From the NCBI GenBank assembly GCA_025453955.1, contig JALOPJ010000001.1:12515-76514 (forward strand): a DNA stretch of 64,000 nt, read 5' to 3'. Positions 7,318 through 43,173 of the stretch are shown piece after piece (the first letter of the stretch is position 1; every line of letters starts with the position of its first letter). The notes under the pieces are model-generated. The model was given only the letters and a program-made list of their open reading frames with translations, did no database searches and had not been told where the DNA came from. The position numbers were made by a program, and so were the translations under genes. This DNA is from Candidatus Edwardsbacteria bacterium. GTDB lineage: Bacteria > Edwardsbacteria > AC1 > EtOH8.

Positions 7318-8430
7318 TCAGGCCTTGGCCGGCGCCGGAGCCGGCGGCTCGCAGATCTCCCCTTCGCGCTTGAGCTCGGCGGCCCGCTTGATCTCGGCGC
7401 GGGTCATGAAGCCCACGGCGATGAAGATGAACACCAGCGCCAGCCAGTCTTCCGACTTGGGATACTTGCCCCCGAAGAACAGGGCGAAGACCAGGGTGGC
7501 CAGGGTGCCGGCCACGAGCGAGGTCAGCCGGTTGGCCAGCCCGGCAAACGTGGCGGTGCGGCCCTTGAACATGAAGATGAACACCGAGGAAAAGGCCACG
7601 ATGCCGAACACTCCGCCGGCCACCACCACCATCGGCCAGTGGATCGAGGCCGCAACATAGCCGCGGTGCAGCGCCTCCAGAATCTTGCCGGAGCCGGAGG
7701 GCAGGAGCATCAGGACCGCCAGGGCCAGCAGGATGGTGATCGATGCCGAGACCTGCTCCACCGCGAAGAAGGCTTTGTTGTCCTGCTTGCATCCCTTGCC
7801 CCTGGTGTTCTTGTAGTAGTTCATGATGTAGATCCGGATGAAATAGGCCAGCAGATAGCTGCACAGCACCAGCATTGCCAGCGTGTTTTTCAACAGGTCG
7901 CTCCCGCCCGCCTCCTTGACGAAGAACAGCTGGAGCCCGACCGCCGCGATGGCGAACAGCACCGCCACCTCCTCCTCCCAGAAGACCTTCTTGTGGAGGA
8001 TGCCCTGTTTGATCTGGATGGCATCGATGATCCGGGAGAAGATGATCACCGACCCCCGCATGATCAGCATGGCCACCATCACCGAGCGCAGCAGGACATA
8101 CAACAGGGTGGTAGTGGGGATGACCACGGCCGTGCAGATGCCCGAGGGGATGATGTACAGGTATTCGGCCGGGAAACGGAGCTTTCCCCAGGTGATCATG
8201 TTGGCGGACTCCATCCGCGCCCAGCGGAAAATGGATACCACCGCCATGCAGATCAGGCTGCCGCCCAATGTGCTGTAGACCAGAAATTCCCAGTTGTTGA
8301 CCCCGGGCAGGCCGCGCGACACCGGGCCGGTGTAGTATTTGGTGGCCACCGTGTAGATGGTATACGTGCCCAGGTAGGCCAGGCACAACTCGACCAACGC
8401 GGCGGTACTGCCCTCTTTTGACTTGAACAT
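7318..8430 (-). CDS. Integral membrane protein of unknown function (two-repeat, about 10 TM; DMT/EamA-like topology)
   Basis: 370-aa, strongly hydrophobic ORF with two internally similar 5-TM halves and a charged C-terminal tail (AEIKRAAELKREGEICEPPAPAPAKA). Its GC content is visibly lower than the flanking DNA. Confidence 0.55.
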   Translation of the reverse strand: MFKSKEGSTAALVELCLAYLGTYTIYTVATKYYTGPVSRGLPGVNNWEFLVYSTLGGSLICMAVVSIFRWARMESANMITWGKLRFPAEYLYIIPSGICTAVVIPTTTLLYVLLRSVMVAMLIMRGSVIIFSRIIDAIQIKQGILHKKVFWEEEVAVLFAIAAVGLQLFFVKEAGGSDLLKNTLAMLVLCSYLLAYFIRIYIMNYYKNTRGKGCKQDNKAFFAVEQVSASITILLALAVLMLLPSGSGKILEALHRGYVAASIHWPMVVVAGGVFGIVAFSSVFIFMFKGRTATFAGLANRLTSLVAGTLATLVFALFFGGKYPKSEDWLALVFIFIAVGFMTRAEIKRAAELKREGEICEPPAPAPAKA

Positions 8431-22881: not shown

Positions 22882-23738
22882 CGGTGCTCACGGTTTGCCA
22901 GGACGTCGGACAGGTGCCGCAGGGTCAGGCGGGACAGCACCCGATCCCCGGCCAGGGCTTGCCGGCAGGCCCGGGCCGCCACAGCCAACAGATGGTAGAT
23001 GAAGTCGACCTTGCGGCAACAGGTCCGGTAATACCGGGTCTCCGCCCGCAGCACCGACCGATACCGCCCCGGGGTGACCCGACGCAGCCGTTGTCCGATC
23101 GAGAGGTCGTGGCCCACCACCGCCTCGGTGGCGTAGACCGTCCGCCCCTGGCGGCGGACCATGGCGAACAGCCAGTGGTCCAGATAATCCAGCGGGAACG
23201 CCTCGTTGAAACCGCCCAGATCTGCCATGAACGACGTCCGGATGAGGGTGCCGGAATTGATGGCGGTCACCGTGCCCCGGAGGACTCCCGCCGCGGTCCC
23301 GGCCAGCGGCCGGATCATCCCCCCCCACCGCAGCCGGGCGGGTGAGACCGGTACGCCGTGGTCGGCAACCCTGGGCACGACCGCCACCGTTCCCGGTCCG
23401 ATCGTTTCACCTGCCCGCCGGGTGACGGCGAGGAACCGGTCCGGCAGCGAGGAATCCTGGTCGAGCAGCAACAGCCATTCGTATCGACCGGCCGCGGCCA
23501 TCGCCAGCGCGCGGTTATACGCCCTGGCCAATCCGCCGTTCGATGGGTCGTGCAGGTACTGGTGCTCGAACGGCAACGCCACCGTCATGTCCTGGGCGGC
23601 CGGGCCGTTGTCATGGATGACCAGCGTCAGCCGCGGCCGGTCCTGCGGACAATGCTCCCAGGATCGCACCAGGGAAGCGATTGTGGATGACTCGTCAGGC
23701 CGGCATTGGTACAAGACCACCACGGCGATGATGTTCAT
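22878..23738 (-). CDS. Glycosyltransferase family 2 (rhamnosyltransferase-like)
   Basis: Start MNIIAVVVLYQCRPDESSTIASL (ATG at 23738; the track ORF extends to 23765), with a DQD motif (LLLDQDSSL). Confidence 0.75.
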   Translation of the reverse strand: MNIIAVVVLYQCRPDESSTIASLVRSWEHCPQDRPRLTLVIHDNGPAAQDMTVALPFEHQYLHDPSNGGLARAYNRALAMAAAGRYEWLLLLDQDSSLPDRFLAVTRRAGETIGPGTVAVVPRVADHGVPVSPARLRWGGMIRPLAGTAAGVLRGTVTAINSGTLIRTSFMADLGGFNEAFPLDYLDHWLFAMVRRQGRTVYATEAVVGHDLSIGQRLRRVTPGRYRSVLRAETRYYRTCCRKVDFIYHLLAVAARACRQALAGDRVLSRLTLRHLSDVLANREHR

Positions 23739-24595
23739 CCTCTGCCCCGGGCCTTGCCGATGCAAGCCGCTATCGTCTGCATCATGGTCCGCTTGCGGGG
23801 CAGGCCGGCGATCGCGTCCTCCCGCTCCCGGATCGCTTCATCGATGGCCGGCTGACAGTCGGGGCGTCCCAGGTGGTCCGACAGCAGCCGCAGCATCTCG
23901 ATCTCGCGCAGCCATTTCGACATGGCCGGCGCCCCGCCCCAGGCCCCGGTCTGATGGATCCGGTAGACGGCCATCGTCTCGTTGATGAAACCGATCTTCC
24001 CGTGCCGGGCCGCCAGCACGAAATAGGGCCAGTCGAGGGGCGTGACCCGATCGAACCACGGCGGCAGCACATCGGACCGATGGTTGCGGACCATGCATGA
24101 CGCCGTGTAGATGAAGTTGCGCCGGCACAGGTCCGCGATGGTCAGGGTTGGGGCCAGGCGGCCGCTGGAGCGCCGGCGCCTGAAGAGGTTCGCGACGGTC
24201 CGGGGGTACGACAGGACCACGCGGTGGAAGCACAGCGCATAGTCCGGATTGGCCTCCAGGAAGTCCACCTGCTGCTGCAGCTTGTCGGGATCGGTCCAGT
24301 AGTCGTCGCCTTCCAGACATGCGATGTATCTCCCGGTGCATAATGGCAACGCAGACTCGTACGCATTGCGCATGGCCCCCACGTTCTTTGTCTGGCAGAC
24401 CGCGGTGATCGCACCCGGATGGGTGGCCTGGTATCGCTTGACGATGTCCGTCGTGCCATCGGTCGAGCAGTCATCACCGATGACGAGTCGGTAATCGAAG
24501 CTGGTCCGCTGCATCAACACGCTTTCGATCGCCCGAGCGATGTACCTCGCATGATTGTAGGTGACCATCCATACGCTGACCATGGGCTCGGCCAC
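23735..24595 (-). CDS. Glycosyltransferase family 2
   Basis: VSVWMVTYNHARYIARAIESVLMQ, DDCSTDGT and a DxD-type region (LEGDDYW). Confidence 0.8.
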   Translation of the reverse strand: MAEPMVSVWMVTYNHARYIARAIESVLMQRTSFDYRLVIGDDCSTDGTTDIVKRYQATHPGAITAVCQTKNVGAMRNAYESALPLCTGRYIACLEGDDYWTDPDKLQQQVDFLEANPDYALCFHRVVLSYPRTVANLFRRRRSSGRLAPTLTIADLCRRNFIYTASCMVRNHRSDVLPPWFDRVTPLDWPYFVLAARHGKIGFINETMAVYRIHQTGAWGGAPAMSKWLREIEMLRLLSDHLGRPDCQPAIDEAIREREDAIAGLPRKRTMMQTIAACIGKARGRG

Positions 24596-25278
24596 TAGTA
24601 CAGCCCCCCGTTCACATCGATGCTCGTCCCGGTGATATAGCCGCAGCTGATCAAGTACTTGATCGTTGTCAGGATCTCCGATGGCTCGCCCAACGCCCTG
24701 GACGGGATGGCCCGTTTCACCTCTTCCCGCAATTCCGTCGGCACATCACTGATCATCCCGATGTCGAAATATCCCAGGTTGATGTTGTTGATGGTGATAC
24801 CCCGGTCTGCGTTTTCCGCTGCGATCGCCCTGGTCATCCCCCATAATCCTGCCTTGGAGGCGGCGTACGCGCTCGTCCCGGGCACGGCTTTCTGGGCGAC
24901 GACCGATGACAAGTTAATGATCCTCCCGTAGCGTTGCTCCCGCATCATCGGCAACAAGGCGTTGATGACGTGGAAGGTCCCCACCAGGTTGACCGTGATC
25001 AAACGGGCCCACCGCGCCGGGTCCGCCTTGTGCGCCAGCGCGTTGTAATTCACGCCGGCGCAATTGATCAGCACCATCTTGCTGCCGTTGCGCTTTTTGA
25101 TGGCGGCCGCGAAGGCCGCGACATCCGCTGGATCGGCGACATCGACCCGGCGCATCGAGCCGACGTTTTTGTTCGGCGCCGTGCTGTTGAAAAGGCCGAT
25201 GACATCCTGCTCCTCACGGATGAATTCCCCCATGAGGTACAGCCCGATGCCCTTAGATGCGCCGGTAATGATGATCAT
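24595..25278 (-). CDS. Short-chain dehydrogenase/reductase (FabG-like 3-oxoacyl reductase)
   Basis: Start MIIITGASKGIGLYL (cat at 25276-25278), catalytic YxxxK (YAASKAGL) and NAG motif (NNAG...). The track ORF has a 55-aa spurious extension. Confidence 0.8.
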   Translation of the reverse strand: MIIITGASKGIGLYLMGEFIREEQDVIGLFNSTAPNKNVGSMRRVDVADPADVAAFAAAIKKRNGSKMVLINCAGVNYNALAHKADPARWARLITVNLVGTFHVINALLPMMREQRYGRIINLSSVVAQKAVPGTSAYAASKAGLWGMTRAIAAENADRGITINNINLGYFDIGMISDVPTELREEVKRAIPSRALGEPSEILTTIKYLISCGYITGTSIDVNGGLY

Positions 25279-25300
25279 GGTTGGCACCTTGCATTGGATC

Positions 25301-26293
25301 TCAAGACCATTTGATGATCGAGGCGCCCCACGTCCAGCCTGAGCCGACGGCGGCAAAAAGCACGAGCGTGCCGGGACTGAGCTTCCCCGATCGGTTGACC
25401 TCGTCCAGCAAGATTGGGATCGTTCCTCCCGAGGTGTTCGCATACCGGTCCATGTTGGTCATCACTTTTTCGAATGGCAGCCCGATCATTTCTGCGGTCT
25501 TCTTCAGGATGGCGATGCTCGGTTGATGCGGGATCATGTAATCGATATCAGCGATGCGGAGATTGGTGTCCGAGAGGACCTGGGTGATCGCCTGCGACAG
25601 CACCTTGGTCCCGGTATTGTAGACTTCCCTGCCGTTCATCGTGAAAAACTGCAATCCTTCCCGGATGTTCTCCTCAGTCAGGGGGATCTCGGAGCCGCCC
25701 CCGGGCACGGTGAAGTTGAACTTCCCCCTGCCGTCCGAATAGAGCCGAAAAGCCAAGAACCCTTCGTCGCCGCTGCTGTGCGACAGGACGGCGGCGCCGG
25801 CCCCGTCGCCGAAGAAGACGGCGTCCCTGCTGGTCCAATCCGTGATCCGCGAGAATATGTCGGCCCCGACGACGAGCACGTTGTTGTACACGCCGCTGGC
25901 GATGAACTGCGCGGCCGTCGACATTGCGAAGAGAAAACCCGAGCAGACGGCCGCCAAGTCGAACGCGACCGCGTTGTACGCCTGGATCTTGTCCTGGACG
26001 ATGCAGGCCGTCGACGGGGCTTTCCGGTCAGGCGTGGCGGTCGCGACGATGATCAAGTCGATGTCCGGGGGACGCAACCCAGCGTTCGCGATCGCGGACA
26101 GGCCGGCCTTGGCGGCCAAATCGCTCGTGGTCTCGTTTTCGGCGGCGATCCTTCTTTCCCTGATGCCCAGCGTCGATTGGATCCACGCAGCCGAGGTCGG
26201 CACGATGCTTTCGAGATACTCGTTCGTACAAACCTTTTCGGGGACGTACGAACCCGTCCCCGAGATCTTCACCCTGCGGATGAGCTGTCTCAT
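25301..26293 (-). CDS. fabH: 3-oxoacyl-[ACP] synthase III (KAS III/FabH family)
   Basis: Active-site Cys context (AFDLAAVCSGFLFAM), His (IPHQPSIAIL) and Asn (YANTSGGTIP). Sits inside a sugar-modification gene block. Confidence 0.8.
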   Translation of the reverse strand: MRQLIRRVKISGTGSYVPEKVCTNEYLESIVPTSAAWIQSTLGIRERRIAAENETTSDLAAKAGLSAIANAGLRPPDIDLIIVATATPDRKAPSTACIVQDKIQAYNAVAFDLAAVCSGFLFAMSTAAQFIASGVYNNVLVVGADIFSRITDWTSRDAVFFGDGAGAAVLSHSSGDEGFLAFRLYSDGRGKFNFTVPGGGSEIPLTEENIREGLQFFTMNGREVYNTGTKVLSQAITQVLSDTNLRIADIDYMIPHQPSIAILKKTAEMIGLPFEKVMTNMDRYANTSGGTIPILLDEVNRSGKLSPGTLVLFAAVGSGWTWGASIIKWS

Positions 26294-26844
26294 GGCTCAA
26301 GCTCGTATCGCTGCTTGACCTGGATGTATTCTTCCTGCAGGATGCTCAGCAGCCACGTATTCTTGTGCTCGCCGTTCTTATACACATAGTTCCGCATCAA
26401 TCCCTCCTTGCGAAAGCCGGCTTTTTCCATCAGCTTGATCGCCACGCCATGCTCTTCGAGCGCATGACCGATGCATCGGACCATCCGCAACTCCTCGAAC
26501 ACGTACTTCAAGATCATCAGGGCGGTCTGGAGGCCGTACCCCTTGCCCGATTTCTCGGGCGCCAGCTTGATGCCGCTCCAGAAGCAACTGCCGTTGCGGT
26601 AATCGATATCCGCTATCGACGTGTACCCGATGATGCCGTCGTTGCCGTTTTCGCATATCGCCAGGTACACTGCCGACGGGTTGTCGCCCTGGATGATGTC
26701 CTGCACCCATTTGAGCTCCCGCTCCGGGGACACGAACCGCTTCACGCCCCCGATCTTGTTCTCCATCGCCTCGATCCGCCGCAAGGCGTTGATGAACAGA
26801 GCGTCCTCGGTCCGGAAAGCCCTGAGGTAAATGCCGAATACCAT
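26290..26844 (-). CDS. GNAT family N-acetyltransferase (RimJ/RimL-like)
   Basis: 184 aa with the acetyltransferase fold motif (GKGYGLQTALMILKYVFEELRMVRC). Lower GC than its surroundings. Confidence 0.75.
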   Translation of the reverse strand: MVFGIYLRAFRTEDALFINALRRIEAMENKIGGVKRFVSPERELKWVQDIIQGDNPSAVYLAICENGNDGIIGYTSIADIDYRNGSCFWSGIKLAPEKSGKGYGLQTALMILKYVFEELRMVRCIGHALEEHGVAIKLMEKAGFRKEGLMRNYVYKNGEHKNTWLLSILQEEYIQVKQRYELEP

Positions 26845-26848
26845 GTCG

Positions 26849-27799
26849 TTACCCTCCTATCAACGTGCTGAGTTCTTGGAGATCGGCTTTCCCGTACCGC
26901 TGATCGATGGGCAGCGCCAGCAAGTCGTCCGCCAGATGCCGCTCGAAGGGACTGGGCCGGGCGGCCAGCGACGACGGCCCCCAGTACTGGGCGACGTACA
27001 CCTTGTTCCTGATCAGCGCCTTCCTGATCACCTTCCCGTCGCCGCGCAGGTAGGGATAGATCAACGGGCAGTCGCGCGCCCCCAAGTGTACCCGGAGTTC
27101 GTTCGTTCCGCCCAATCGCGAATGCAGGAACGCGAAATTGCCCCGCCGGATGGTCCTGACGGCCTCATAGTCGATGTTCCGCAACAACGCCAGGGTCAGC
27201 GCCGACATCGCGGCGATGGGCTGCCCGGCCAGTGACCGTTCGTTTCGGACGAAGTCGCGATATCCCTGATCGGGATTGCCGTCGATCCTTTTCAGGAGAT
27301 GCCTCATCCGGTGCCAGGAACTGGCCGGTCGCGGCGCCGCCGCGAGTCTTTTCTCGGTATAGAGATAGCCGCCATCGGGTACGCCGAAAAATTTTCTGGG
27401 CGAATAGAAGGCGTCGACCCCCGGCAGTGGCGTGGCGTAAAACGCCTGGGCGTTGTCGATGATCACGTTGGGGCATACCCGGGCGATCCGCTGCGCCCCG
27501 CGCCCGTGCAGGCCGAAGTAATTGGTATACACGAAGGCCTCCCGGGGCCGGACCAGCGCAACGTCGAACAGGGGTTCCAACCGCTCATCGAGATGGTAGT
27601 ATTGGCACGCCAGCCCCAGCTTCCGGATCGGCTCCCGCATCACATCACAGGTGTACGCTGGCAGGTATACCTTGCGGTACTTCCCGGCCCGCAGGAGGTA
27701 TTCGAAGGCATTGCGGGCGGTGTTCACCCGGATCGCCCCCGGGTGGTACTCTGCGCCCTTGCGCAGTTCCAATTCGAAATACCCGCCGACGGCTCTCAT
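26849..27799 (-). CDS. Short, divergent DegT/DnrJ/EryC1-like (PLP-fold) protein
   Basis: 316 aa. VYLPAYTCDVMREPIRKLGLACQYYHLDE resembles the DegT AAT-fold region, and FYSPRKFFGVPDGGYLYT resembles the SFHATK...EGG PLP-lysine region. It is about 60 aa shorter than canonical DegT. Confidence 0.45.
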   Translation of the reverse strand: MRAVGGYFELELRKGAEYHPGAIRVNTARNAFEYLLRAGKYRKVYLPAYTCDVMREPIRKLGLACQYYHLDERLEPLFDVALVRPREAFVYTNYFGLHGRGAQRIARVCPNVIIDNAQAFYATPLPGVDAFYSPRKFFGVPDGGYLYTEKRLAAAPRPASSWHRMRHLLKRIDGNPDQGYRDFVRNERSLAGQPIAAMSALTLALLRNIDYEAVRTIRRGNFAFLHSRLGGTNELRVHLGARDCPLIYPYLRGDGKVIRKALIRNKVYVAQYWGPSSLAARPSPFERHLADDLLALPIDQRYGKADLQELSTLIGG

Positions 27800-28491
27800 A
27801 TCAGTTCATGCTCGTTCAGCATGCGGCCGATGGCTTCCCGCGAATTGAACATGATCACGTCGATGATGGACAGGTCGGGGACGAACTGCGGGCAATTCTG
27901 CCGATACCGGACGTCCTTGCTCCTGATGAAGCTCAACCGTATCCCGTTGCCTGCGAAATCCTCCTTCCGGTACAGCGACCGGCCGCCGATCGGGTTGATA
28001 TAGTCGGTCGCGCCGTTCAAGCGGCAAATCTCGACCAAGCGCCCGGTCTTCTCCAGTCCCTTCGTCGCCGCTGCATGGCTGCTGCTGGCCTGGAAACTGG
28101 TGTCGATGCCCAGGTAGTGCGATACCTTCGTGACGGATCGCATCGCCAGCTCGCCGATCAGCGTGGTGTCGCTGCGCAAGCAGTCCTCGACCACCGGCCA
28201 GGCCTGCCCGAAAAAGGGCGCCTTCTGGTACGCCTGTTGGATCGTTTTCAACAGCTTGCCCCTGTTGTCGGTGAACTCGACGCGATTGATCGGCGAGAAG
28301 GAACTGGCATTCTTCAATTGGACGGTCAGGTAATGCGGTGCCCCGTCGATGAGGATGCGGTTGCGGTTGATCCAGCCATTCTTGATAAAATTCACATCAT
28401 CATAGAAAACGAACGTATCGGCCGCGCGCACCAGCTGGAAATACCCGAGGTACGGGAAAAAGTACGGCTGCATGACGGCGAGTTTGTTCAT
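27796..28491 (-). CDS. WbqC-like family protein
   Basis: MNKLAVMQPYFFPYLGYFQLVRAADTFVFYDDVNF matches the WbqC family (PF08889) N-terminus. The family is typical of O-antigen clusters that make N-acylated amino sugars. Confidence 0.75.
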   Translation of the reverse strand: MNKLAVMQPYFFPYLGYFQLVRAADTFVFYDDVNFIKNGWINRNRILIDGAPHYLTVQLKNASSFSPINRVEFTDNRGKLLKTIQQAYQKAPFFGQAWPVVEDCLRSDTTLIGELAMRSVTKVSHYLGIDTSFQASSSHAAATKGLEKTGRLVEICRLNGATDYINPIGGRSLYRKEDFAGNGIRLSFIRSKDVRYRQNCPQFVPDLSIIDVIMFNSREAIGRMLNEHELI

Positions 28492-29600
28492 GTCCGCCGC
28501 AACAGCCCGGCCACGTGATCGACGTCGGCCGGATCAAGGTCCGAGTAGAGCGGCAGGCAGATGACCTGCCCGGCCACCCGCTCCGCCACCGGCAGGTTCC
28601 CGGGCGCGGCGCTGGGCAGGCCCTTGTAGGTCGGGAACTGGCTGATCAGCGGGTAAAAGTAGCGGCGGCCGAACACGTTGTGCCGCTTCAGTTCCTCGTA
28701 CACGGCGTCGCGCGAGCGCCCGTAGCAGCCCTGGTCGATCAGGACCGGGAAATAGGGATAACAGTGGACCACCCCGGGCGCGTCCTCGAGGAACGACAAC
28801 CCGGCGATGCCCCGCAGGCGCTCCCGGTAGCGCCGGGCGAGGCCCTGCCGCTTTGCGATCGACCCGTCGACGTATTTCAGCTGCAGCAGGCCCAGCGCCG
28901 CCTGGAACTCGTTCATCTTGGCGTTGATCCCCGGCGCCACCACGGTGGTCTCGCCGGCAAACCCGAAATTCTTCAGGAAATCGATCCGTTGCTTCATGGC
29001 TCCGTCGTGGCAGACGATGGCCCCGCCCTCGAACGTGTGGTAGACCTTGGTGGCGTGGAAGCTCATCACCGACAGGTCGCCGAAGTTCAGCACCGGCTGG
29101 CCACCCACGGTGACGCCGAAGGTGTGGCAGGCGTCGTAGATCAGCTTCAGCCCGTAGGCGTCGGCGATCTTCTGCAGCCGGTCGACCTGGCAGGGGTTGC
29201 CGTACACATGGACCGGCATGATGGCGGTGGTCTGCGGGGTGATGGCCGCCTCCACTTTGTCGGGGTCCAGGTTGAAGTACCCGGGCTCGATGTCGGCGAA
29301 CACCGGCTTGATGTTGTTCCACCAGATGGAGTGGGCGGTGGCCACGAAGCTGAAGGGCGTGGTGATCACCTCGCCGGTGATCCGCAGCGCCTGCAGGGCG
29401 GTGATCAGCGCCAGGGTGCCGTTGGAGAACAGCGAGATGTGCTCGACCCCCAAATAGCGGCACAGCGCCCGCTCGAGTTCCTGGTGGTACTTCCCGTTGT
29501 TGGTCACCCACTTGGTGTCCCAGATGTCCCGCAGGGCGGCCTCGAATTCCTCCAGCGGCGGGAGGAACGGCTGGGTCACGTAGATCGGTTTGCTGGTCAT
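28488..29600 (-). CDS. DegT/DnrJ/EryC1/StrS family sugar aminotransferase
   Basis: IYVTQPFLPPLEEF, GTLALITALQALRI and the PLP lysine in SFHATKVYHTFEGGAIV, 370 aa. Confidence 0.85.
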   Translation of the reverse strand: MTSKPIYVTQPFLPPLEEFEAALRDIWDTKWVTNNGKYHQELERALCRYLGVEHISLFSNGTLALITALQALRITGEVITTPFSFVATAHSIWWNNIKPVFADIEPGYFNLDPDKVEAAITPQTTAIMPVHVYGNPCQVDRLQKIADAYGLKLIYDACHTFGVTVGGQPVLNFGDLSVMSFHATKVYHTFEGGAIVCHDGAMKQRIDFLKNFGFAGETTVVAPGINAKMNEFQAALGLLQLKYVDGSIAKRQGLARRYRERLRGIAGLSFLEDAPGVVHCYPYFPVLIDQGCYGRSRDAVYEELKRHNVFGRRYFYPLISQFPTYKGLPSAAPGNLPVAERVAGQVICLPLYSDLDPADVDHVAGLLRRT

Positions 29601-29659: not shown

Positions 29660-31897
29660 TCACGGTTTCGAGGCGACGTACAGCACCGAGCCTTCGTGGA
29701 TGCCGCAGCGGTCGAACTGCTGCCGGCCGAAGTGATCCACGGCGAGCTCCTCGATGGTGAATCCGACGCTTTGCACTTTCGCGGTGAACCCCGGCTTGGA
29801 GTAGGTCCGGACATGGTCGTCCTGGCCGTAATGGTGCCACCGCTCCGCCGCCGTCAACGGTCCGCCGACCTGGTAATCGCGCTCCAGTCCCAGCTGGATC
29901 GGCACCATCAGGATCGCCCGCCCGCCCGGGGACAGCACCCGGTACAGCTCCCGCATCGCCTTGACGTCATCCTCCACGTGCTCCAGGATGTGCGAGCAGA
30001 TGATGAAATCGTAGTTGCCGTCTGGATAGATCGACATATCGGTGATGTCGACCGTATCGTCGACCCCCGGCATGTGGAGGTCGGCGGTCCGGTGCCGCAC
30101 GCCCCGGTGGGAGCGGATCAACGCCGCCAGCGGCCGGGACGGTGCCATCTCCAGCAGTTGCAGCTCCTTGCCCGCCAGGTATGCGTCGAGGTACAGCGCG
30201 GACAGGCGGTCCCGGTCGCTGGCGCCGCAGGAGGGGCAGGCGTAGGCCAGGATATTGATCGTTTCGCCGTTGAAGATGCTGTGCACATACCGGTGCTTCA
30301 TCCATTGCCGGAAATAGGCGTCAGGCAGGCGCTCGAATCCGCGCACCCTGCGCCGGCACACCGGGCAGTAAAACCGCCGCCGGCCGAACAGCGCGGCCAC
30401 GTCCTTGAGCACGGCGACCGGCACGTACGGCCGCAGCCGGCTTCTCAGTTTTTCCCCCATCCGCATCATGAACGACCTGGCGATCCCTTTCATCTCGAGG
30501 TATTCCGGGTTGCGGACCGTTTCCGATATGGCCACCAGCAGCGCGGCCCCCGATGCCAGCTGGACCGCCAGCAGCAGCGGCCGGCCGGCGTTGATGAAGC
30601 GGGTCTCGAGGAACAGGACGGCGCTGACGACCGCTCCGATGACGAAGGACGGCAGGATGTCCGCGATCTGCTCCCGGGCGCCGTACCGGATCAGCTTGCC
30701 CGAGTAATACCCGTTCAGGAAGAACGCGCCGAAGGAGATGGCGATCAGACCGGCCAGCATCGCCTTGATCCCCATCGCCATCGCCGCCAGGATGATCGGG
30801 ATCACCAGGAGTTTCTTCACGATCTCGATCCTCAGCGACAGGTCGGAGCGACCCTTGACGTGCAGGACGTTCAGGTTCAGGGCGTGCAGCGGATACAGCA
30901 TGGCGGAGAAGCACAGCAGCTGCAAGTACACGGCGGAGGTGGCCCATTGTTCGCCGATCAGCGTGGTGACGAGCGGTTGCGCCACCGCGGCCAGCCCCAT
31001 CATCGAGATGAAGGAAATGAACATGGTGTTCTTGATGATCCGCTGGAACCCGGCCTTCAGCTTGTGCGGCTCATCCTGCAGCTGCGACAGCACCGGGTAG
31101 CTGACCCGCTGGACGACGGTCGTGATGTTCGACGAGGGCAGATTGCTGAACTCCTCGGCCTTGGTGTAGTATCCCAGTTGGGCCGCGCTGAAGTACCGTC
31201 CGATCAGAAGATAGTAGATGTTCTGGTAGACCGTGTTGATCAGGTTGGTGAACAGCAGCTTGTACCCGAACCGGAAATGCTCCTTGAAGGCGCTGAGGCT
31301 GAACGCCGGCAGCGGCTGCCAGCGCGTCCACGCCCACAGCAGCACCGTGGACAACGCCGTCGCGGTGATGGCCTTCCACACCAGGCTCCACACCCCGAAC
31401 CCGCGGTAGGCCATGCCGATCGCCACGGCGCCCGAAGCGGCGGCCGCGATCACCGAGATGGTGGTCTGGGTCCGGAAGTCGATCCGCTTGACGAGGATCG
31501 TCCGGTGGATGATCCCGAGGCTGCCGATCACGAGGCCGACGGCGACCACCCGCACGATCGGGACCAGTCTCGGTTCGTGGAAGAAGACGCTGACCGGCCC
31601 GGCCAGGACATAGAGGGCCAGGTACGCGACGGCGCTCCCGGCCAGGTTGAAGTAGAAGACCGTGCTGTAATCTTCCTGGGTGCAGGACGTTTTCCGGATC
31701 AGCGAGTGGCTGAAGCCGCCGTCGATGACTATCAGGGAAACGGCGACGAACACCGTGACCATGCCGATCAGGCCGAACTCGCCCGGGGACAACAAGCGGG
31801 CCAGGATGATCCCGACGATGAACTGGATGCCGAGGCTGGCGACGTTCTCGGTGACGCTCCAGGCAAGCCCGTCGATCGTCTGCTGCTTCAGGGACAT
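29660..31897 (-). CDS. wzx: Wzx-type polysaccharide flippase (MOP superfamily) fused to a C-terminal SAM-dependent methyltransferase domain with Cys4 Zn-ribbon
   Basis: Residues 1-480 form a 12-TM polysaccharide biosynthesis protein (LAWSVTENVASLGIQFIVGIILARLL...). Residues about 500-745 hold CPVCRRRV...CPSCGAS and a class I MTase core (DFIICSHILEHVEDDVKAMRELYRVLSPGGRAILMVP). A single uninterrupted ORF of 745 aa. Confidence 0.7.
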   Translation of the reverse strand: MSLKQQTIDGLAWSVTENVASLGIQFIVGIILARLLSPGEFGLIGMVTVFVAVSLIVIDGGFSHSLIRKTSCTQEDYSTVFYFNLAGSAVAYLALYVLAGPVSVFFHEPRLVPIVRVVAVGLVIGSLGIIHRTILVKRIDFRTQTTISVIAAAASGAVAIGMAYRGFGVWSLVWKAITATALSTVLLWAWTRWQPLPAFSLSAFKEHFRFGYKLLFTNLINTVYQNIYYLLIGRYFSAAQLGYYTKAEEFSNLPSSNITTVVQRVSYPVLSQLQDEPHKLKAGFQRIIKNTMFISFISMMGLAAVAQPLVTTLIGEQWATSAVYLQLLCFSAMLYPLHALNLNVLHVKGRSDLSLRIEIVKKLLVIPIILAAMAMGIKAMLAGLIAISFGAFFLNGYYSGKLIRYGAREQIADILPSFVIGAVVSAVLFLETRFINAGRPLLLAVQLASGAALLVAISETVRNPEYLEMKGIARSFMMRMGEKLRSRLRPYVPVAVLKDVAALFGRRRFYCPVCRRRVRGFERLPDAYFRQWMKHRYVHSIFNGETINILAYACPSCGASDRDRLSALYLDAYLAGKELQLLEMAPSRPLAALIRSHRGVRHRTADLHMPGVDDTVDITDMSIYPDGNYDFIICSHILEHVEDDVKAMRELYRVLSPGGRAILMVPIQLGLERDYQVGGPLTAAERWHHYGQDDHVRTYSKPGFTAKVQSVGFTIEELAVDHFGRQQFDRCGIHEGSVLYVASKP

Positions 31898-38366: not shown

Positions 38367-39586
38367 GCGGGGGCGGCACTCGCTCGCCGCACTACCTCCT
38401 GGATGATCTTCTCAGTCCGAGAGACGGCGGCGGGCCAACTGTACTCATTCTCCACCAAAGACCGGCCATTGGCGACCAACCGTTGCGCGTGCTCATCATC
38501 GTTCAACAGCGTGACGACCGACCGCGCGAATTCATCGGCATCATCCGCGATCATCAGGTAGCGTCCATTTTCCGCGGTGATACCTTCCGCGCCGATGCTG
38601 GTGGAGACGATGGGGATACCCGCCGCCATGTAATTGAGGATCTTGATCCTCATTCCGCCGCCGACCCACAGCGGGACCACCGCCAGGCGGCAGCGGGCGA
38701 ACATGTCGTCAGGGTTTTCGACAAAACCGGCCACTTCGACGTTCGGGCCGCGGTACCGCTTGAAATGAGTCGGCATGTTGCGGCCGGCCACCACCAGCTT
38801 GGCATCGGGCGCTAGCGCGACGATCTTCGGGAACACACTCCGTAAGAACCACGTTAAACCCTGCCTGTTGGGTAGCCAATCCATCGAGGCCAAGTGGAGG
38901 ATCACCCGCGTCTGGTTCACCCGGCCGCTGCAGCACCGTGAGAGGTCGACGCCCGCCGGCACCACGTGCGTCCTCCCGGCAAGGGTTCTATCCAATGCGA
39001 TGATCCGTTCCCGATCCTCCGTCGTGATGGCTAAAATGGCGTCGAACCTGCCGAGCATCTCACGTTCGTATCTCACCAGTCGCCCGGCCTGCGATCGGTA
39101 GAGGGCGCGCTTGAACGGGTTTCGTTCGTTCGCGGCCAGCCGCCCCATGATAGCACTGTCGACATCATGCTCGCGTAATATGACCGGCAGCTCGGGCCAC
39201 CTGCGTTTTATCGCCGCGGCATAATGCGACATGTGCAGATAGTCAACATGAACGCAATCGACAGCGGTCCGCTCGAGATACGACATGATGTAACCAAGGA
39301 TTTCATCGGACATGTACTTGGTCATGTTATACGGCAAACGCGAGCACAGCGCGTTGGCGAGGAACGACGAGCGCCGGTTGTCCACGTCCCGATAGAAGAC
39401 CATGCAATGCCTAGCTAGTTCCCGCAGCGGCGCTAGATTGACGTTCCGTTCTTGGTCCGGTGCTATCACGACCAGATGGACCTCATGACCGCGGGCGGAG
39501 TATTGGCGGGTAAAATTATAGATGCTGATCTTCCCGCCGTCGATCGGCGGGTACGGCAGGCGGTGGCAGAGCTGGAGAATCTTCAC
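38363..39586 (-). CDS. Glycosyltransferase family 4 (GT1-type)
   Basis: MKILQLCHRLPYPPIDGGKISIYNF, plus a C-terminal GGMRIKILNYMAAGIPIVSTSIGAEG. Confidence 0.8.
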   Translation of the reverse strand: MKILQLCHRLPYPPIDGGKISIYNFTRQYSARGHEVHLVVIAPDQERNVNLAPLRELARHCMVFYRDVDNRRSSFLANALCSRLPYNMTKYMSDEILGYIMSYLERTAVDCVHVDYLHMSHYAAAIKRRWPELPVILREHDVDSAIMGRLAANERNPFKRALYRSQAGRLVRYEREMLGRFDAILAITTEDRERIIALDRTLAGRTHVVPAGVDLSRCCSGRVNQTRVILHLASMDWLPNRQGLTWFLRSVFPKIVALAPDAKLVVAGRNMPTHFKRYRGPNVEVAGFVENPDDMFARCRLAVVPLWVGGGMRIKILNYMAAGIPIVSTSIGAEGITAENGRYLMIADDADEFARSVVTLLNDDEHAQRLVANGRSLVENEYSWPAAVSRTEKIIQEVVRRASAAPA

Positions 39587-40584
39587 ACCGCCCCCCTGCC
39601 AGGACGGACCGGCACCACTCGTCGCGGGCTCGGCACGTGTGCGGCGACGATCCCGGCCCGTCGTACCAAACGGTCGCTGAGGAATACCAACGAGGCGTGG
39701 GCTGCGGGGAAACGGCTCGCCAGCCGTGCATAGGACCGCAGCAAGCTCCCCCGAGGGCCTGCCGCGCGCACGAGGGCATCAACGACCCTGATATCGGCCA
39801 GCGCGGCACCCGTTCGGCGGATGGCAGGCACGAGACTCATCTCGTCGAGAATGCAGGTGGCCTTGGTCGTGAAGAGGCTGTAGGTTTCGGCGGTCAGCGG
39901 AAAGGACGAATGCCAAGCGTCGCTCGATGTCGTATCGGTCGGGCACAGATACTCCCGCAGTTTCCGTTTCAGGCTGGCGGACAACGGCGCGTCACGCCGG
40001 AATGGCTGCTGGTCGTAGCCGCACGCAAAGAATTCTGCGGCGCGCAATCGAGGCCATTCCAGCCGCTGCAGCACCCGGTACGGGAGGATCAACACATTGC
40101 TGCGGACCCAGTGGTTGAATCGCTCGCCCTTGATCTCGTATGTCGCTGGCGCATGCGTGACGAACCGCAGCCAGCCGCGGTGACGGTTGAATCCGTAGGT
40201 CAAGCCTGCGCAAGCCGACTGGCCGATGACGAACTCAAACAGCTCGTCGGTCAAGCAGTGGCGGTACTCCCCGGCATTCAACCGATAGGTCTCGTTGGCG
40301 AACATCACGGCGTCTGGGCGGACGTCCTGCTGCAACGCGTACTGGATGCCCCGCATCCAGCCCGAGAACTCGCGGTAGCTGTTGTCACCGCCGATCACTA
40401 CCTCGTCGGGCGCGAGGCGCGATGCGGGGCGGGATTCGTCCTTGTTGTCGACGATGCAGTACTGGAAACTGCCTCGCCGGCAGCGGTCGAAGTACCGTTT
40501 GAACTCAGCGACGGACGACTGGAACTTGCCCTGGTCGTATTGGACGTAGATCACCAGAACGGAATAGTGCTTTGCCGGGTTCAT
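39583..40584 (-). CDS. Hypothetical protein within the polysaccharide locus
   Basis: Start MNPAKHYSVLVIYVQYDQGKF (cat at 40582-40584), no recognisable motifs and no TM segments. Translationally coupled (4-nt overlap) to the downstream GT4. Confidence 0.45.
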   Translation of the reverse strand: MNPAKHYSVLVIYVQYDQGKFQSSVAEFKRYFDRCRRGSFQYCIVDNKDESRPASRLAPDEVVIGGDNSYREFSGWMRGIQYALQQDVRPDAVMFANETYRLNAGEYRHCLTDELFEFVIGQSACAGLTYGFNRHRGWLRFVTHAPATYEIKGERFNHWVRSNVLILPYRVLQRLEWPRLRAAEFFACGYDQQPFRRDAPLSASLKRKLREYLCPTDTTSSDAWHSSFPLTAETYSLFTTKATCILDEMSLVPAIRRTGAALADIRVVDALVRAAGPRGSLLRSYARLASRFPAAHASLVFLSDRLVRRAGIVAAHVPSPRRVVPVRPGRGAV

Positions 40585-40588
40585 CGGT

Positions 40589-41545
40589 TCACAGTTTGAT
40601 GTTCTTGAACGTCTTGATGTTGTAGAACCGGTCATCGCCGTAGTCGCCATACTGCGGGCGGTGGGCGTAGAGGTCCGCCACGATGTCGGGAATGTCGTAA
40701 ATTGGCTGGAACCCCAACTCGGTCTTGGCCTTCTCGCAGGTGACCTTGTAGTTCCGGAAATCCTCGATGTTCTTCATCTCGATCGCGATATGCCTGTCCG
40801 TCAGCGTCTCGACCTCGTGCTTGACCAGGTCGGCCACCTGTCCCACCGTGTAGTTCCCGGAGGTGACGTTGAACACGCCGTTGACCGCGCCGCCCGCCTG
40901 GATCGCCCTGAAGTATGCGTTGACCGCGTCTCGCAGGTCGTAGATCGGACGCCAGATGGCTGGATTGTTGACGATGATCCTGCCCTCGGTCATCGCGGAC
41001 TTGAACATGGTGTTGACGATGAGGTCGAATCGCATCCGCGGGCTGTGTCCGCAGACAGTGCCCTGGCGCAGCGCGATCACCGAGAACGAGTCGTCGTGGA
41101 GCTGCAGGACCCCGCGCTCCCCCTGCAGTTTCGAGATGCCGTACGGATAGGCGCAGGTGACCGGCGATTCCTCGTCATAGAGCTGGTTTACGGTGTACCC
41201 GTACACCGAACATGACGAGGCGTAGATGTACCTCCAGACGCCGACCCGTTTGGCGATGTACGCCAGGTACGACGGCAGCGCGCCGTTGTAGATGAAGTTG
41301 TTGGCCGGGCTGTACTCGGCCATCGGGTCGTTTGAAAGGCCGGCCAGGAAGACCAGCTGATCGAAGCCCTCCAGATCCCGCTCGGTGCAGTCGAACAGGT
41401 TCTTGCGAGTGACCTTGACCGCGTCCGGCAGCATGTTGCCGAACCAGCAGAGGTCGATCACCTCCACCTTGTAGCCATGGTCTAGCAGGGCGGGGGCCAG
41501 CATGGAGCCGATGTAGCCGGCGCCGCCGGCCAGCAGGATGCGCAT
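40589..41545 (-). CDS. NAD-dependent sugar epimerase/dehydratase (SDR extended family)
   Basis: MRILLAGGAGYIGSMLAPALLDHGYKV and catalytic YGISK. Confidence 0.8.
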   Translation of the reverse strand: MRILLAGGAGYIGSMLAPALLDHGYKVEVIDLCWFGNMLPDAVKVTRKNLFDCTERDLEGFDQLVFLAGLSNDPMAEYSPANNFIYNGALPSYLAYIAKRVGVWRYIYASSCSVYGYTVNQLYDEESPVTCAYPYGISKLQGERGVLQLHDDSFSVIALRQGTVCGHSPRMRFDLIVNTMFKSAMTEGRIIVNNPAIWRPIYDLRDAVNAYFRAIQAGGAVNGVFNVTSGNYTVGQVADLVKHEVETLTDRHIAIEMKNIEDFRNYKVTCEKAKTELGFQPIYDIPDIVADLYAHRPQYGDYGDDRFYNIKTFKNIKL

Positions 41546-42324: not shown

Positions 42325-43173
42325 TCACCCGGTTCGCCCCATGGTCGCCATCATTCGCCCGATGACCTCCTGCCAATCGACGGCCGGGGCCAGACCAGTC
42401 GTTTCGAGATGGGTTCCCAGCGCCGGCATCGGGACCCACAGCCGGCGCCGGCTTCCGAGCAGGATGTACGGCCAGCAGTACAGCCATGCCTTAATGATGA
42501 TCCTGAACACGCCGCTCCCGGACAGAGCGTGGCGAACGAAGCTGCCCGGACCCAGCTGGTGCTTCGTCATGCCGAGCCATAGGCTGGCGTCGTCGTTTCC
42601 CCGCGCGAAGCTAAGAACACAACGACGTGTTCGCCGCAGTGTGGCTTTCGTTGTCAGGAATGTAAGACAAGTCGAGTTGGCGGTCCTCCAGTGGCGGCCG
42701 CCATGCACGCAGATGTGGCTCGGGTGGTCGTGCAGCGGTGCCGTGTAGAGGTCGATGTGGTCATAGGCCGAGATGAAATCCGCATCGGTCCGTGCGCGCA
42801 GGAACCCGACCATGTCGACGAGCGCGTTCGGAAGGTAGAGGTAATCGTCCTCGGCAACATACACGACTTCGGAGCACTCCTGCGCGAGTAACGACTTGAC
42901 CTGCGTCGCGAACGTCGCCCTGTTCCCGATGGCATCGGTGTTGATCACCGTGAGGTCGGCGGCGGCGAATGAAGCCCGGAACAGCTCTTCGTACGCCGGC
43001 GGGCAGCCGTCGAGGATGACAATCATCTTAGCACGCAGCGAACCGAGCGCCCCCAGCAGCGACCGCAGGCACAGCCGGACCAGCGCGAGCTTGTCGTCCG
43101 CGTGAGCCAGCGGCCGTTTCGAGATGGACGGGCAGACGCGATATGCGATGGCGATATCGTAGTGTCTATCCAT
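42325..43173 (-). CDS. Putative glycosyltransferase (nucleotide-diphospho-sugar transferase-like), uncharacterised
   Basis: 282 aa with IAIAYRVCPS...MIVILDGCPPAYEELF...VYVAEDDYLY (DD motif). The assignment is tentative. Confidence 0.4.
   Translation of the reverse strand: MDRHYDIAIAYRVCPSISKRPLAHADDKLALVRLCLRSLLGALGSLRAKMIVILDGCPPAYEELFRASFAAADLTVINTDAIGNRATFATQVKSLLAQECSEVVYVAEDDYLYLPNALVDMVGFLRARTDADFISAYDHIDLYTAPLHDHPSHICVHGGRHWRTANSTCLTFLTTKATLRRTRRCVLSFARGNDDASLWLGMTKHQLGPGSFVRHALSGSGVFRIIIKAWLYCWPYILLGSRRRLWVPMPALGTHLETTGLAPAVDWQEVIGRMMATMGRTG

Follow-up and report, generated by a model that had tools for sequence, protein, structure and literature searches.

A portable ketoacyl synthase-ketoreductase pair in a polysaccharide locus of Candidatus Edwardsbacteria, predicted to serve the synthesis of an N-(3-hydroxyacyl) 4-amino-6-deoxy sugar

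Why enzymes resembling those of fatty acid synthesis should be encoded inside a block of amino-sugar genes is the question raised by a polysaccharide locus of Candidatus Edwardsbacteria bacterium (assembly GCA_025453955.1). The stretch of DNA that we analysed, called the window throughout, comprises 64,000 nucleotides (contig JALOPJ010000001.1, positions 12,515 to 76,514), and in the block at 24595-29600 of the window a FabH-like ketoacyl-ACP synthase III (KAS III; ACP, acyl carrier protein) and a FabG-like short-chain dehydrogenase/reductase (SDR) are encoded next to an aminotransferase of the DegT family and an N-acyltransferase. The original prediction, made from the sequence of the window, was that this block yields a 4-amino-6-deoxy sugar carrying an N-(3-hydroxy)acyl group. 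Our results on gene co-occurrence, synteny and conserved catalytic residues, together with characterised precedents, support this prediction, and we consider it probable, on the evidence of sequences, that the block is a horizontally shared cassette making a nucleoside diphosphate (NDP)-4-amino-4,6-dideoxyhexose whose N-substituent terminates in a short 3-hydroxyacyl group, 3-hydroxybutanoyl being the simplest case.

The block consists of six minus-strand genes that are contiguous, overlapping or nearly abutting. They encode, in the direction of reading, a DegT/DnrJ/EryC1-family aminotransferase dependent on pyridoxal phosphate (PLP) (28488..29600, 370 amino acids (aa); PF01041, E 1.7e-104), a WbqC-family protein (27796..28491, 231 aa; PF08889, E 6e-68), a 316-aa protein for which we coin the name U316 and whose DegT-type fold was recognised by fold and profile alignment (26849..27799), a GCN5-related N-acyltransferase (GNAT; 26290..26844, 184 aa; PF13302, E 1e-13), the KAS III (25301..26293, 330 aa; ACP_syn_III and ACP_syn_III_C, PF08545 and PF08541) and the SDR, which is of the classical FabG/PhaB-like type (24595..25278, 227 aa; adh_short, E 1.6e-40). 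ATGA overlaps occur at the DegT/WbqC, WbqC/U316 and GNAT/KAS junctions, a 4-nucleotide gap with GGAGG upstream separates U316 from GNAT, a 22-nucleotide spacer lies between KAS and SDR, and the SDR overlaps the next gene at TAGTG. The six genes are thus contiguous and translationally coupled, as had been proposed. That next gene, also on the minus strand, encodes a family 2 glycosyltransferase (GT2; 23735..24595, 286 aa; PF00535), is the last of the conserved cassette described below and is likely to encode the transferase for the modified sugar. Scanning 17-36.5 kb for promoters and terminators revealed no site exceeding shuffled expectation.

The KAS III passes the thresholds of the NCBIfam models for FabH (NF006829, FabH subfamily: 370 bits, cut-off 249; TIGR00747: 330 bits, cut-off 292) and has the motifs AVCSGF, PHQPS and YANTS. 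In all 83 members of its subfamily the catalytic Cys-His-Asn triad (equivalents of C112, H244 and N274) and the coenzyme A (CoA)-contacting equivalents of Trp32 and Arg151 are invariant; residues are numbered as in E. coli FabH, a numbering that is correct at the triad. The protein is predicted to make a 3-ketoacyl thioester by decarboxylating condensation, most simply acetoacetyl. Its identity to housekeeping FabH enzymes of solved structure is only about 41-47%, whereas members of its own subfamily, 330 aa long, are 69-81% identical over at least nine phylum-level lineages (Bacteroidota, Ignavibacteria, Marinimicrobia, Cloacimonadota, Chloroflexota, Armatimonadota, Leptospira, Gastranaerophilales and Acidobacteria). 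The best 120 relatives listed, leaving aside the window's own entry, are 73-81% identical and nearly all exactly 330 aa long, with Pedobacter, Salinimicrobium, Ginsengibacter, Ignavibacteria, Marinimicrobia, Acidobacteria and metagenome-assembled genomes of the FCB group among their sources. Taking one genome per species, a scan gave 223 carriers; the 80 best, with 69-77% identity, are distributed over Bacteroidota, Ignavibacteria, Neomarinimicrobiota, Cloacimonadota, Chloroflexota, Armatimonadota, Leptospira and Gastranaerophilales. All relatives examined lie inside polysaccharide loci. Because the nearest relatives are this similar across unrelated phyla, and always in such loci, the KAS III is, by its sequence relationships, a member of a dedicated, horizontally spread polysaccharide-locus subfamily and not the housekeeping fabH product; the tight clustering with housekeeping FabH that would speak for the cell's own gene was not found. 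Across the same loci the KAS is far more conserved than the SDR (median identity 72% against 50%), which indicates that its high identity reflects constraint and not recent transfer alone.

The SDR has the motifs expected of its family (TGxxxGIG, NxAG and S...YxxxK). The label of a FabG-like SDR in the original prediction held, as did those of KAS III, GNAT, WbqC and canonical DegT aminotransferase, but the start of the longest SDR ORF (open reading frame) did not: this ORF (24595-25443) overlaps the KAS gene, and the lengths of homologues (225-227 aa) together with the position of the TGASKGIG motif place the true start at 25278, giving 227 aa. Models of FabG and of acetoacetyl-CoA reductase score the protein equally, at about 165 bits and in both cases under the cut-off; TIGR01830 (FabG) gives 166.7 bits where 297.75 are required, and the remaining FabG and PhaB models are likewise under their cut-offs. 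The protein is therefore FabG-like without being a FabG equivalog, and is predicted to act as a 3-ketoacyl reductase.

If the pair serves an amino-sugar pathway, the genes around it should tell. Genes were called in 82 loci carrying the KAS subfamily and their neighbours were labelled by profiles and Pfam; 54 of these loci, in which three or more genes upstream and four or more downstream were available, are here called well flanked. The same short SDR lies directly downstream of the KAS in 79 of the 82 loci and is present in all 54 well-flanked ones. Among the latter, 45 have a recognised N-acyltransferase family (GNAT of the Acetyltransf_3 or Acetyltransf_9 type, either of two hexapeptide-repeat types, Antibiotic_NAT, or a 310-aa protein without Pfam domain), 43 have an enzyme yielding a free sugar amine (DegT, a PIG-L de-N-acetylase or a polysaccharide deacetylase) and 37 have both, a number that is an undercount, as seen in one locus (L004) in which precomputed Pfam hits reveal both enzyme types. 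The contexts are diverse: FdtA-FdtA-KAS-SDR-310aa-DegT-hexapeptide-repeat protein, corresponding to the 3-amino-3,6-dideoxyhexose route; DegT-hexapeptide-repeat protein-KAS-SDR; PIG-L-KAS-SDR-hexapeptide-repeat protein; glycosyltransferase-KAS-SDR-GNAT-deacetylase; KAS-SDR beside Antibiotic_NAT; and the WbqC cassette as in the window. This co-occurrence of an amine source, an N-acyltransferase and the pair suggests that KAS-SDR is a module supplying a non-acetyl acyl donor for the N-acylation of amino sugars.

In several of these loci a PIG-L protein or a polysaccharide deacetylase with DUF3473 and an acyltransferase (hexapeptide-repeat or Acetyltransf_9 GNAT) flank the pair, with no aminotransferase (L007, L011, L013, L033, L042, L045; L012, L023, L041, L047, L071, L074, L081), an arrangement that suggests removal of an N-acetyl group followed by re-acylation of the amine. 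The 310-aa protein that follows the pair in the FdtA contexts had no sequence relative in the PDB that would tie it to FdhC. A blastn search of 5,426 E. coli genomes with a low-GC KAS-SDR pair, aimed at the O49 and O123 O antigens, gave no match.

On which sugar would such an acyl group be placed? The best NCBIfam model for the DegT protein is of the DesI type (311 bits, under the cut-off of 650) and its best match in the PDB is DesI (2po3), which scores 250 bits where GDP-perosamine synthase scores 173. We therefore predict a C4 aminotransferase acting on an NDP-4-keto-6-deoxyhexose, and because the protein is closer to DesI and RmlA-like genes stand upstream of DegT-WbqC in several homologous loci, the substrate is probably linked to thymidine diphosphate (dTDP). 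The GNAT, predicted to move an acyl group onto a sugar-borne amine, has its best NCBIfam match, a weak one, in PseH, an N-acetyltransferase of a nucleotide-sugar 4-amine (44.7 bits, cut-off 93.1), and a search of PDB sequences gave no match annotated as a sugar 3-hydroxybutanoyltransferase.

The order Wzx-DegT-WbqC-U316-GNAT-KAS-SDR-GT2 recurs in Pedobacter cryoconitis, there with a second GT2, and in two Chryseobacterium species (C. caseinilyticum and C. edaphi), so that the arrangement of the block is not due to chance. The order Wzx-DegT-WbqC is found in addition in L003, L039, L054 and many metagenome loci, and a homologue of the GT2 follows the SDR in L003, L004, L009, L039 and L054 or, in cassettes devoid of KAS-SDR, the GNAT. 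Indeed, DegT-WbqC-U316-GNAT-GT2 is a frequent cassette without the pair, and in the window the pair is placed exactly between its GNAT and its GT2. The five genes from WbqC to SDR (24595-28491) have a GC content at third codon positions (GC3) of 0.81-0.83, lower than the 0.94 of DegT and the 0.91 of Wzx, and identity to Pedobacter cryoconitis is 63-79% for GNAT-KAS-SDR and 43-50% for DegT-WbqC-U316. Both splits are consistent with a cassette assembled from modules of different ages and histories.

Two members of this cassette, U316 and WbqC, were assigned no role in the original prediction. U316 had been taken for a short DegT paralog, a view that stands at the level of fold and profile but is not recovered by family models or by sequence search, there being no Pfam or NCBIfam match at E<=0.01 and no PDB sequence match better than E 0.8. 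Its AlphaFold2 model has a mean predicted local distance difference test (pLDDT) score of 92.1, and every one of the top 50 Foldseek matches in the PDB is a sugar aminotransferase or a homologous PLP enzyme (E down to 3e-13, 12-20% identity), WbpE, DesV, PerA, ArnB and DesI among them. An hhalign comparison with a profile of 43 DegT sequences gave a probability of 88.8% (E 2.5e-6), K136 aligning with the Schiff-base lysine and D115 with the PLP-binding aspartate; aligned instead with a single DegT sequence, the U316 alignment gave no significant result. Residues D115, N116, Q118, S133, R135 and K136 are invariant in 50 homologues, and the N-terminus is about 50 aa shorter than that of DegT enzymes. 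By sequence and model, U316 is probably a truncated, highly divergent PLP-dependent protein of the DegT fold. Its homologues number more than 5,000 in a word-indexed database, where among the 120 listed the source names shown were all 'hypothetical protein' and there was no Pfam domain, and an exhaustive search gave 1683 clusters at 50% identity (E<=1e-30). In a representative library we found a natural fusion (P0379, 469 aa) of U316 residues 3-314 with an Acetyltransf_3 GNAT (319-454), which, as a Rosetta-stone link, ties U316 functionally to the acylation step.

WbqC is a clear member of its family (PF08889: 229 bits, cut-off 21.3; profile positions 1-216 of 218) with a confident AlphaFold2 model (pLDDT 93.7). 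Neither single-sequence nor profile searches of PDB sequences found a relative, and its only notable fold match in the PDB is a weak one to BshC (4wbd; probability 0.95, E 7e-3, TMq 0.48), the putative cysteine-adding enzyme of bacillithiol synthesis. The family takes its name from an E. coli O-antigen cluster, presumably that of O121, and is described in the literature as functionally uncharacterised or as possibly acting in O-antigen production; in the literature searched on WbqC we found no experimentally established function. Using a WbqC profile we recovered 80 metagenome loci, and DegT adjacency was counted in 59. The gene immediately upstream of WbqC encodes DegT in 47 of these 59, and a U316-like gene follows immediately downstream in 35 metagenome loci; in the others the gene after WbqC encodes a hexapeptide-repeat acetyltransferase, a PurN-like formyltransferase, a methyltransferase or, in single cases, a sulfotransferase or an extended SDR.

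Some variants of this arrangement deserve mention. One locus (L106, 1138-7955) has three U316 paralogues in the order DegT-WbqC-U316-245 aa methyltransferase-like protein-U316-U316-GNAT-GT2. In Proteus mirabilis H63 (L167, 6835-17833) the O-antigen locus after cpxRA reads DegT-GT2-WbqC-U316-extended SDR-wzy-like-GT4-fnlABC, with no N-acyltransferase, so WbqC and U316 are found, by sequence, in O-antigen clusters of Enterobacterales as well. A survey of Proteus O antigens makes no mention of 4-amino-4,6-dideoxyglucose (Qui4N), and this WbqC-U316 locus is thus unmatched to a structure. Rhizobium leguminosarum plasmid pCC283b_3 (L166, 7854-13809) carries a seven-gene operon, DegT-WbqC-'glycosylase'-hypothetical protein (323 aa)-GNAT-methyltransferase-glycosyltransferase, among ABC-transporter genes and away from any obvious polysaccharide locus; WbqC and GNAT are identified there by annotation and the 323-aa protein is a candidate U316.

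Characterised systems of the same general kind allow the window to be compared by gene content. The viosamine island of Pseudomonas syringae pv. tabaci (vioA, vioS, vioR, vioB, acp, vioM, vioT) makes dTDP-Qui4N(3-hydroxybutanoyl)2Me for the glycosylation of flagellin, and mutants in the reductase gene vioR lose the modified viosamine (PMC3927599). The window resembles that island in grouping genes for a C4 aminotransferase, KAS III, 3-ketoacyl reductase and N-acyltransferase, which in the window are contiguous, and in that a pair resembling type II fatty acid synthesis would build the N-acyl group. The viosamine island differs in having its own ACP of 69 aa, a hexapeptide-repeat acyltransferase (VioB) and a role in protein glycosylation, whereas the window has a GNAT, no ACP gene, the additional WbqC and U316, and a Wzx/Wzy-type locus. 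In Flavobacterium psychrophilum the O-polysaccharide genes wfpC-wfpG are responsible for Qui2NAc4N(3,5-dihydroxyhexanoyl) (PMC6519341). Here too ketoacyl synthases and a ketoreductase are encoded inside an amino-sugar O-antigen locus, in a host of the Bacteroidota, and an amide bond joins the acyl group to a 4-amino-6-deoxy sugar; the Flavobacterium genes include two ketosynthases, an ACP (wfpD) and a PglD-like acyltransferase and build a C6 dihydroxy chain, where the window has a single KAS III, no ACP and a GNAT. Hexapeptide-repeat partners do occur in other KAS-SDR loci.

FdhC (Holden laboratory) is reportedly a GNAT that uses 3-hydroxybutanoyl-CoA. FdhC and QdhC are 3-hydroxybutanoyltransferases of E. 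coli O103, Salmonella O55, Acinetobacter and Hafnia (PMC4869667) and, like the GNAT as predicted here, N-acylate a dTDP-amino-dideoxyhexose with 3-hydroxybutanoyl; they differ in targeting the C3 amine (Fuc3N, Qui3N), and no KAS-ketoreductase pair is reported for their clusters (PMC4869667). Structures with the corresponding C4 group are on record: Qui4N(3-hydroxybutanoyl) is listed for E. coli O49 and O123, N-(3-hydroxybutanoyl)-D-alanyl on Qui4N for E. coli O123 and Salmonella O58, and N-acetylglycyl for O121 (PMC7685785). Judged by sequence, the block would work much as the viosamine and wfp systems do, and what is new in it is the absence of an ACP, the use of a GNAT, the highly conserved KAS III that has moved between phyla and the DegT-WbqC-U316 partners.

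In the pathway that we infer, whose substrates, step order, stereochemistry, chain length, carrier and product are all predictions, DegT would aminate an NDP-4-keto-6-deoxyhexose, probably a dTDP sugar, made by enzymes encoded outside the window. The KAS III would join a short acyl-CoA primer and a malonyl thioester in a condensation yielding a 3-ketoacyl thioester, which the adjoining SDR would reduce to the 3-hydroxyacyl thioester; the GNAT would then transfer the 3-hydroxyacyl group to the sugar-borne amine and the GT2 would insert the modified sugar into the repeat unit. WbqC and U316 may act between amination and acylation.

Several observations weigh against parts of this proposal. In 81 of the 83 subfamily members Ala replaces the residue equivalent to Phe87, which in E. 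coli FabH caps the primer pocket and so limits primer size; the acyl chain may therefore be longer than C4. The ACP-docking position Arg249 is still basic (Lys or Arg) in 68 of 83 members, and for this reason the use of housekeeping malonyl-ACP has to be considered. Neither rmlA nor rmlB nor gmd occurs in the window, and close to the block there is an Fcl-like gene, a point that bears on the choice between a dTDP and a GDP sugar. The clade of the GNAT (52-71% identity) includes five KAS-SDR cassettes and two without the pair; with an association that is only partial (5/7), acyl specificity cannot be read from the clade. Finally, the fusion and the conserved DegT-WbqC-U316-GNAT module raise the possibility that the GNAT acylates an amine made or processed by U316 instead of the bare C4 amine.

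Which thioester carries the acyl group, and whether the pair does what we propose at all, are matters on which alternatives have to be weighed. The original prediction noted that no ACP gene is visible in the block, and this was borne out more widely, no ACP-like ORF being found in any of the six frames over the whole window; the 82 loci have 51 small ORFs at most 6 kb from the KAS, and a single one of these was ACP-like, in L085, leaving 81 loci with none. As the search used a home-made profile of limited sensitivity, the small ORFs were also inspected by eye. The exceptional locus (L085, 400-4938; KAS-207 aa-ACP-like (76 aa)-SDR-second KAS) resembles the two-ketosynthase layout of F. psychrophilum. 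NphT7 is a KAS III homologue that condenses acetyl-CoA and malonyl-CoA without ACP and is reported to have lost the ACP-docking arginine (PMC5432608, citing Okamura et al. 2010). Going by that description, the KAS III of the window resembles it in its intact Cys-His-Asn triad and in a non-basic residue (Ala) at that arginine, and differs in that NphT7 belongs to a mevalonate-pathway cluster and most members of the window's subfamily retain Lys or Arg. Loss of Arg249 was dropped as a family-wide argument for ACP independence for the latter reason, and counts as one indication among several. A version of the pathway dependent on the cell's ACP, in which the KAS III would use housekeeping malonyl-ACP, the SDR would reduce acetoacetyl-ACP and the GNAT would take 3-hydroxyacyl-ACP, is a possibility that we take seriously while judging it rather unlikely. 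It is in keeping with the ACP genes of both characterised precedents (PMC3927599, PMC6519341), with the FabH thresholds passed by the KAS III, with the basic residue kept at Arg249 by most members and with the ACP-like ORF of L085. Against it stand the ACP-less loci and the remaining docking patch, which has Glu in place of K256 in 69 of 83 members, Ile, Leu or Val in place of K257 in 78 of 83, and mostly Glu, Asn or Asp in place of K214. The partners of the pair, moreover, belong to the GNAT, hexapeptide-repeat and Antibiotic_NAT families, which normally use CoA thioesters, and since housekeeping FabH and FabG already make 3-hydroxybutyryl-ACP, there would be little need for a dedicated pair that only repeated their work. 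Taking these points together with the conserved CoA-contacting residues and the tied scores of the SDR, we lean towards CoA thioesters, that is, a route like that of NphT7 plus PhaB, over housekeeping ACP.

That the KAS III and SDR could be the cell's own fabH and fabG, brought by chance into a polysaccharide locus, agrees with the FabH cut-offs passed by the former and with our finding no second KAS III in the window; it is effectively refuted by the absence of plsX, fabD and acpP near the KAS III within the window, by closest relatives that, at 69-81% identity, come from unrelated phyla and without exception from polysaccharide loci, by the shortfall of the SDR against every FabG cut-off (167 against 298 bits) and by a cassette GC3 below that of the flanking genes, and we give it almost no credence. 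A KAS III-like protein might instead act as an acyltransferase of the CerJ type, as such enzymes exist, or the product of the pair might O-acylate the polysaccharide, and in a few loci, L005 and those of Marinimicrobia among them, no aminotransferase is encoded up to five genes away. This we regard as very unlikely, since the invariant triad is typical of decarboxylative condensation, the near-obligate pairing with a ketoreductase implies a 3-keto product, and the loci lacking DegT still have genes of the Antibiotic_NAT N-acetyltransferase family or de-N-acetylases. More attention is due to WbqC and U316, for which one may imagine that WbqC joins an amino acid or a 2-oxo acid to the C4 amine, U316 transaminates or epimerises the added residue, and the GNAT caps its alpha-amine with the acyl group from KAS and SDR; the product would be an N-(3-hydroxybutanoyl)-aminoacyl-4-amino-4,6-dideoxyhexose like those of E. 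coli O123 and Salmonella O58. We think this unlikely but worth stating. It would account for the conserved DegT-WbqC-U316-GNAT order with DegT directly before WbqC in most loci, for the PLP lysine and aspartate that U316 keeps in a sugar-aminotransferase fold, for the U316-GNAT fusion and for the acetyl-, formyl- or methyltransferases that follow WbqC where U316 is absent; it also agrees with BshC, whose counterpart would here form an amide on an amino sugar, being the sole notable fold match of WbqC, with the O-antigen origin of the WbqC name and with the natural occurrence of Qui4N(N-3-hydroxybutanoyl-D-alanyl) (PMC7685785). It is at odds with the weakness of the BshC match, which is confined to the fold and has no signal at the sequence level, with the lack of an evident ATP-binding motif in WbqC and with the Proteus mirabilis locus, where DegT-GT2-WbqC-U316-SDR does without any acyltransferase; the search of E. 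coli DNA, which covered the KAS-SDR pair, was negative. Somewhat less likely still, and correspondingly speculative, is the fuller form of this idea, in which DegT-WbqC-U316-GNAT would be an undescribed four-enzyme route to composite N-acyl substituents, with WbqC as a BshC-like amide former, U316 transaminating or epimerising the linked residue and the GNAT capping it with 3-hydroxyacyl-CoA from an ACP-independent KAS III and ketoreductase.

The surroundings of the block are those of surface polysaccharide synthesis. The window is of high GC and contains two complete Wzx/Wzy-type polysaccharide loci arranged in tandem, head to tail, at 17.6-49.3 kb (17600-49350), both flanked by housekeeping genes (ispG, ispH, rpsA, cmk and a hisC-like gene). 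Next to DegT, the minus-strand ORF at 29660..31897 (745 aa; Polysacc_synt_3, E 5e-90) encodes a fusion of a Wzx flippase with a C-terminal methyltransferase, the Wzx part occupying residues 31-321 and a class I S-adenosylmethionine-dependent methyltransferase about 617-717, with paired CxxC motifs between them; the Wzx of homologous cassettes is a stand-alone protein of about 420-480 aa. The second polysaccharide locus (33.7-49.3 kb) has its own Bac_transf initiating transferase, an FkbM methyltransferase, GT1 and GT4 glycosyltransferases, Wzx, Wzy_C, Wzz/GNVR and an SLBB export protein, and its GC content is 0.58-0.64, against 0.68-0.74 in the flanks. Three well-supported coding ORFs of high GC3, all on the minus strand, have no Pfam match: 39583-40650 (355 aa) and 42325-43173 (282 aa), both within the second locus, and 7318-8430 (370 aa).

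In O antigens, capsules and flagellin glycans, serotypes are commonly defined by N-(3-hydroxybutanoyl) and related N-acyl amino sugars, for which, to our knowledge, the origin of the acyl donor has rarely been identified. That a bacterium should make an N-hydroxyacyl sugar is in itself unsurprising, the general kind of pathway being already known; in the literature searchable here we found no description of a portable ACP-less module or of the gap that WbqC and U316 represent. The finding of interest is a KAS III-ketoreductase pair without a carrier gene that moves between phyla and fits at least five amino-sugar contexts, namely a C4 aminotransferase with a GNAT, 3-amino sugars of the FdtA/FdtB type, PglD-like acyltransferases, PIG-L or polysaccharide deacetylase with an acyltransferase, and Antibiotic_NAT. 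The KAS III becomes a candidate for a natural enzyme of the acetoacetyl-CoA synthase type. U316 represents a large family that has no model in the copies of Pfam and NCBIfam searched and, together with WbqC, marks a well-defined gap in amino-sugar biochemistry; were the four-enzyme route true, it would provide the missing genetics for Qui4N(N-3-hydroxybutanoyl-D-alanyl) and Qui4N(N-acetylglycyl). Because the pair is portable across amino-sugar contexts, it can serve as a genomic marker in the prediction of N-hydroxyacylated glycans.

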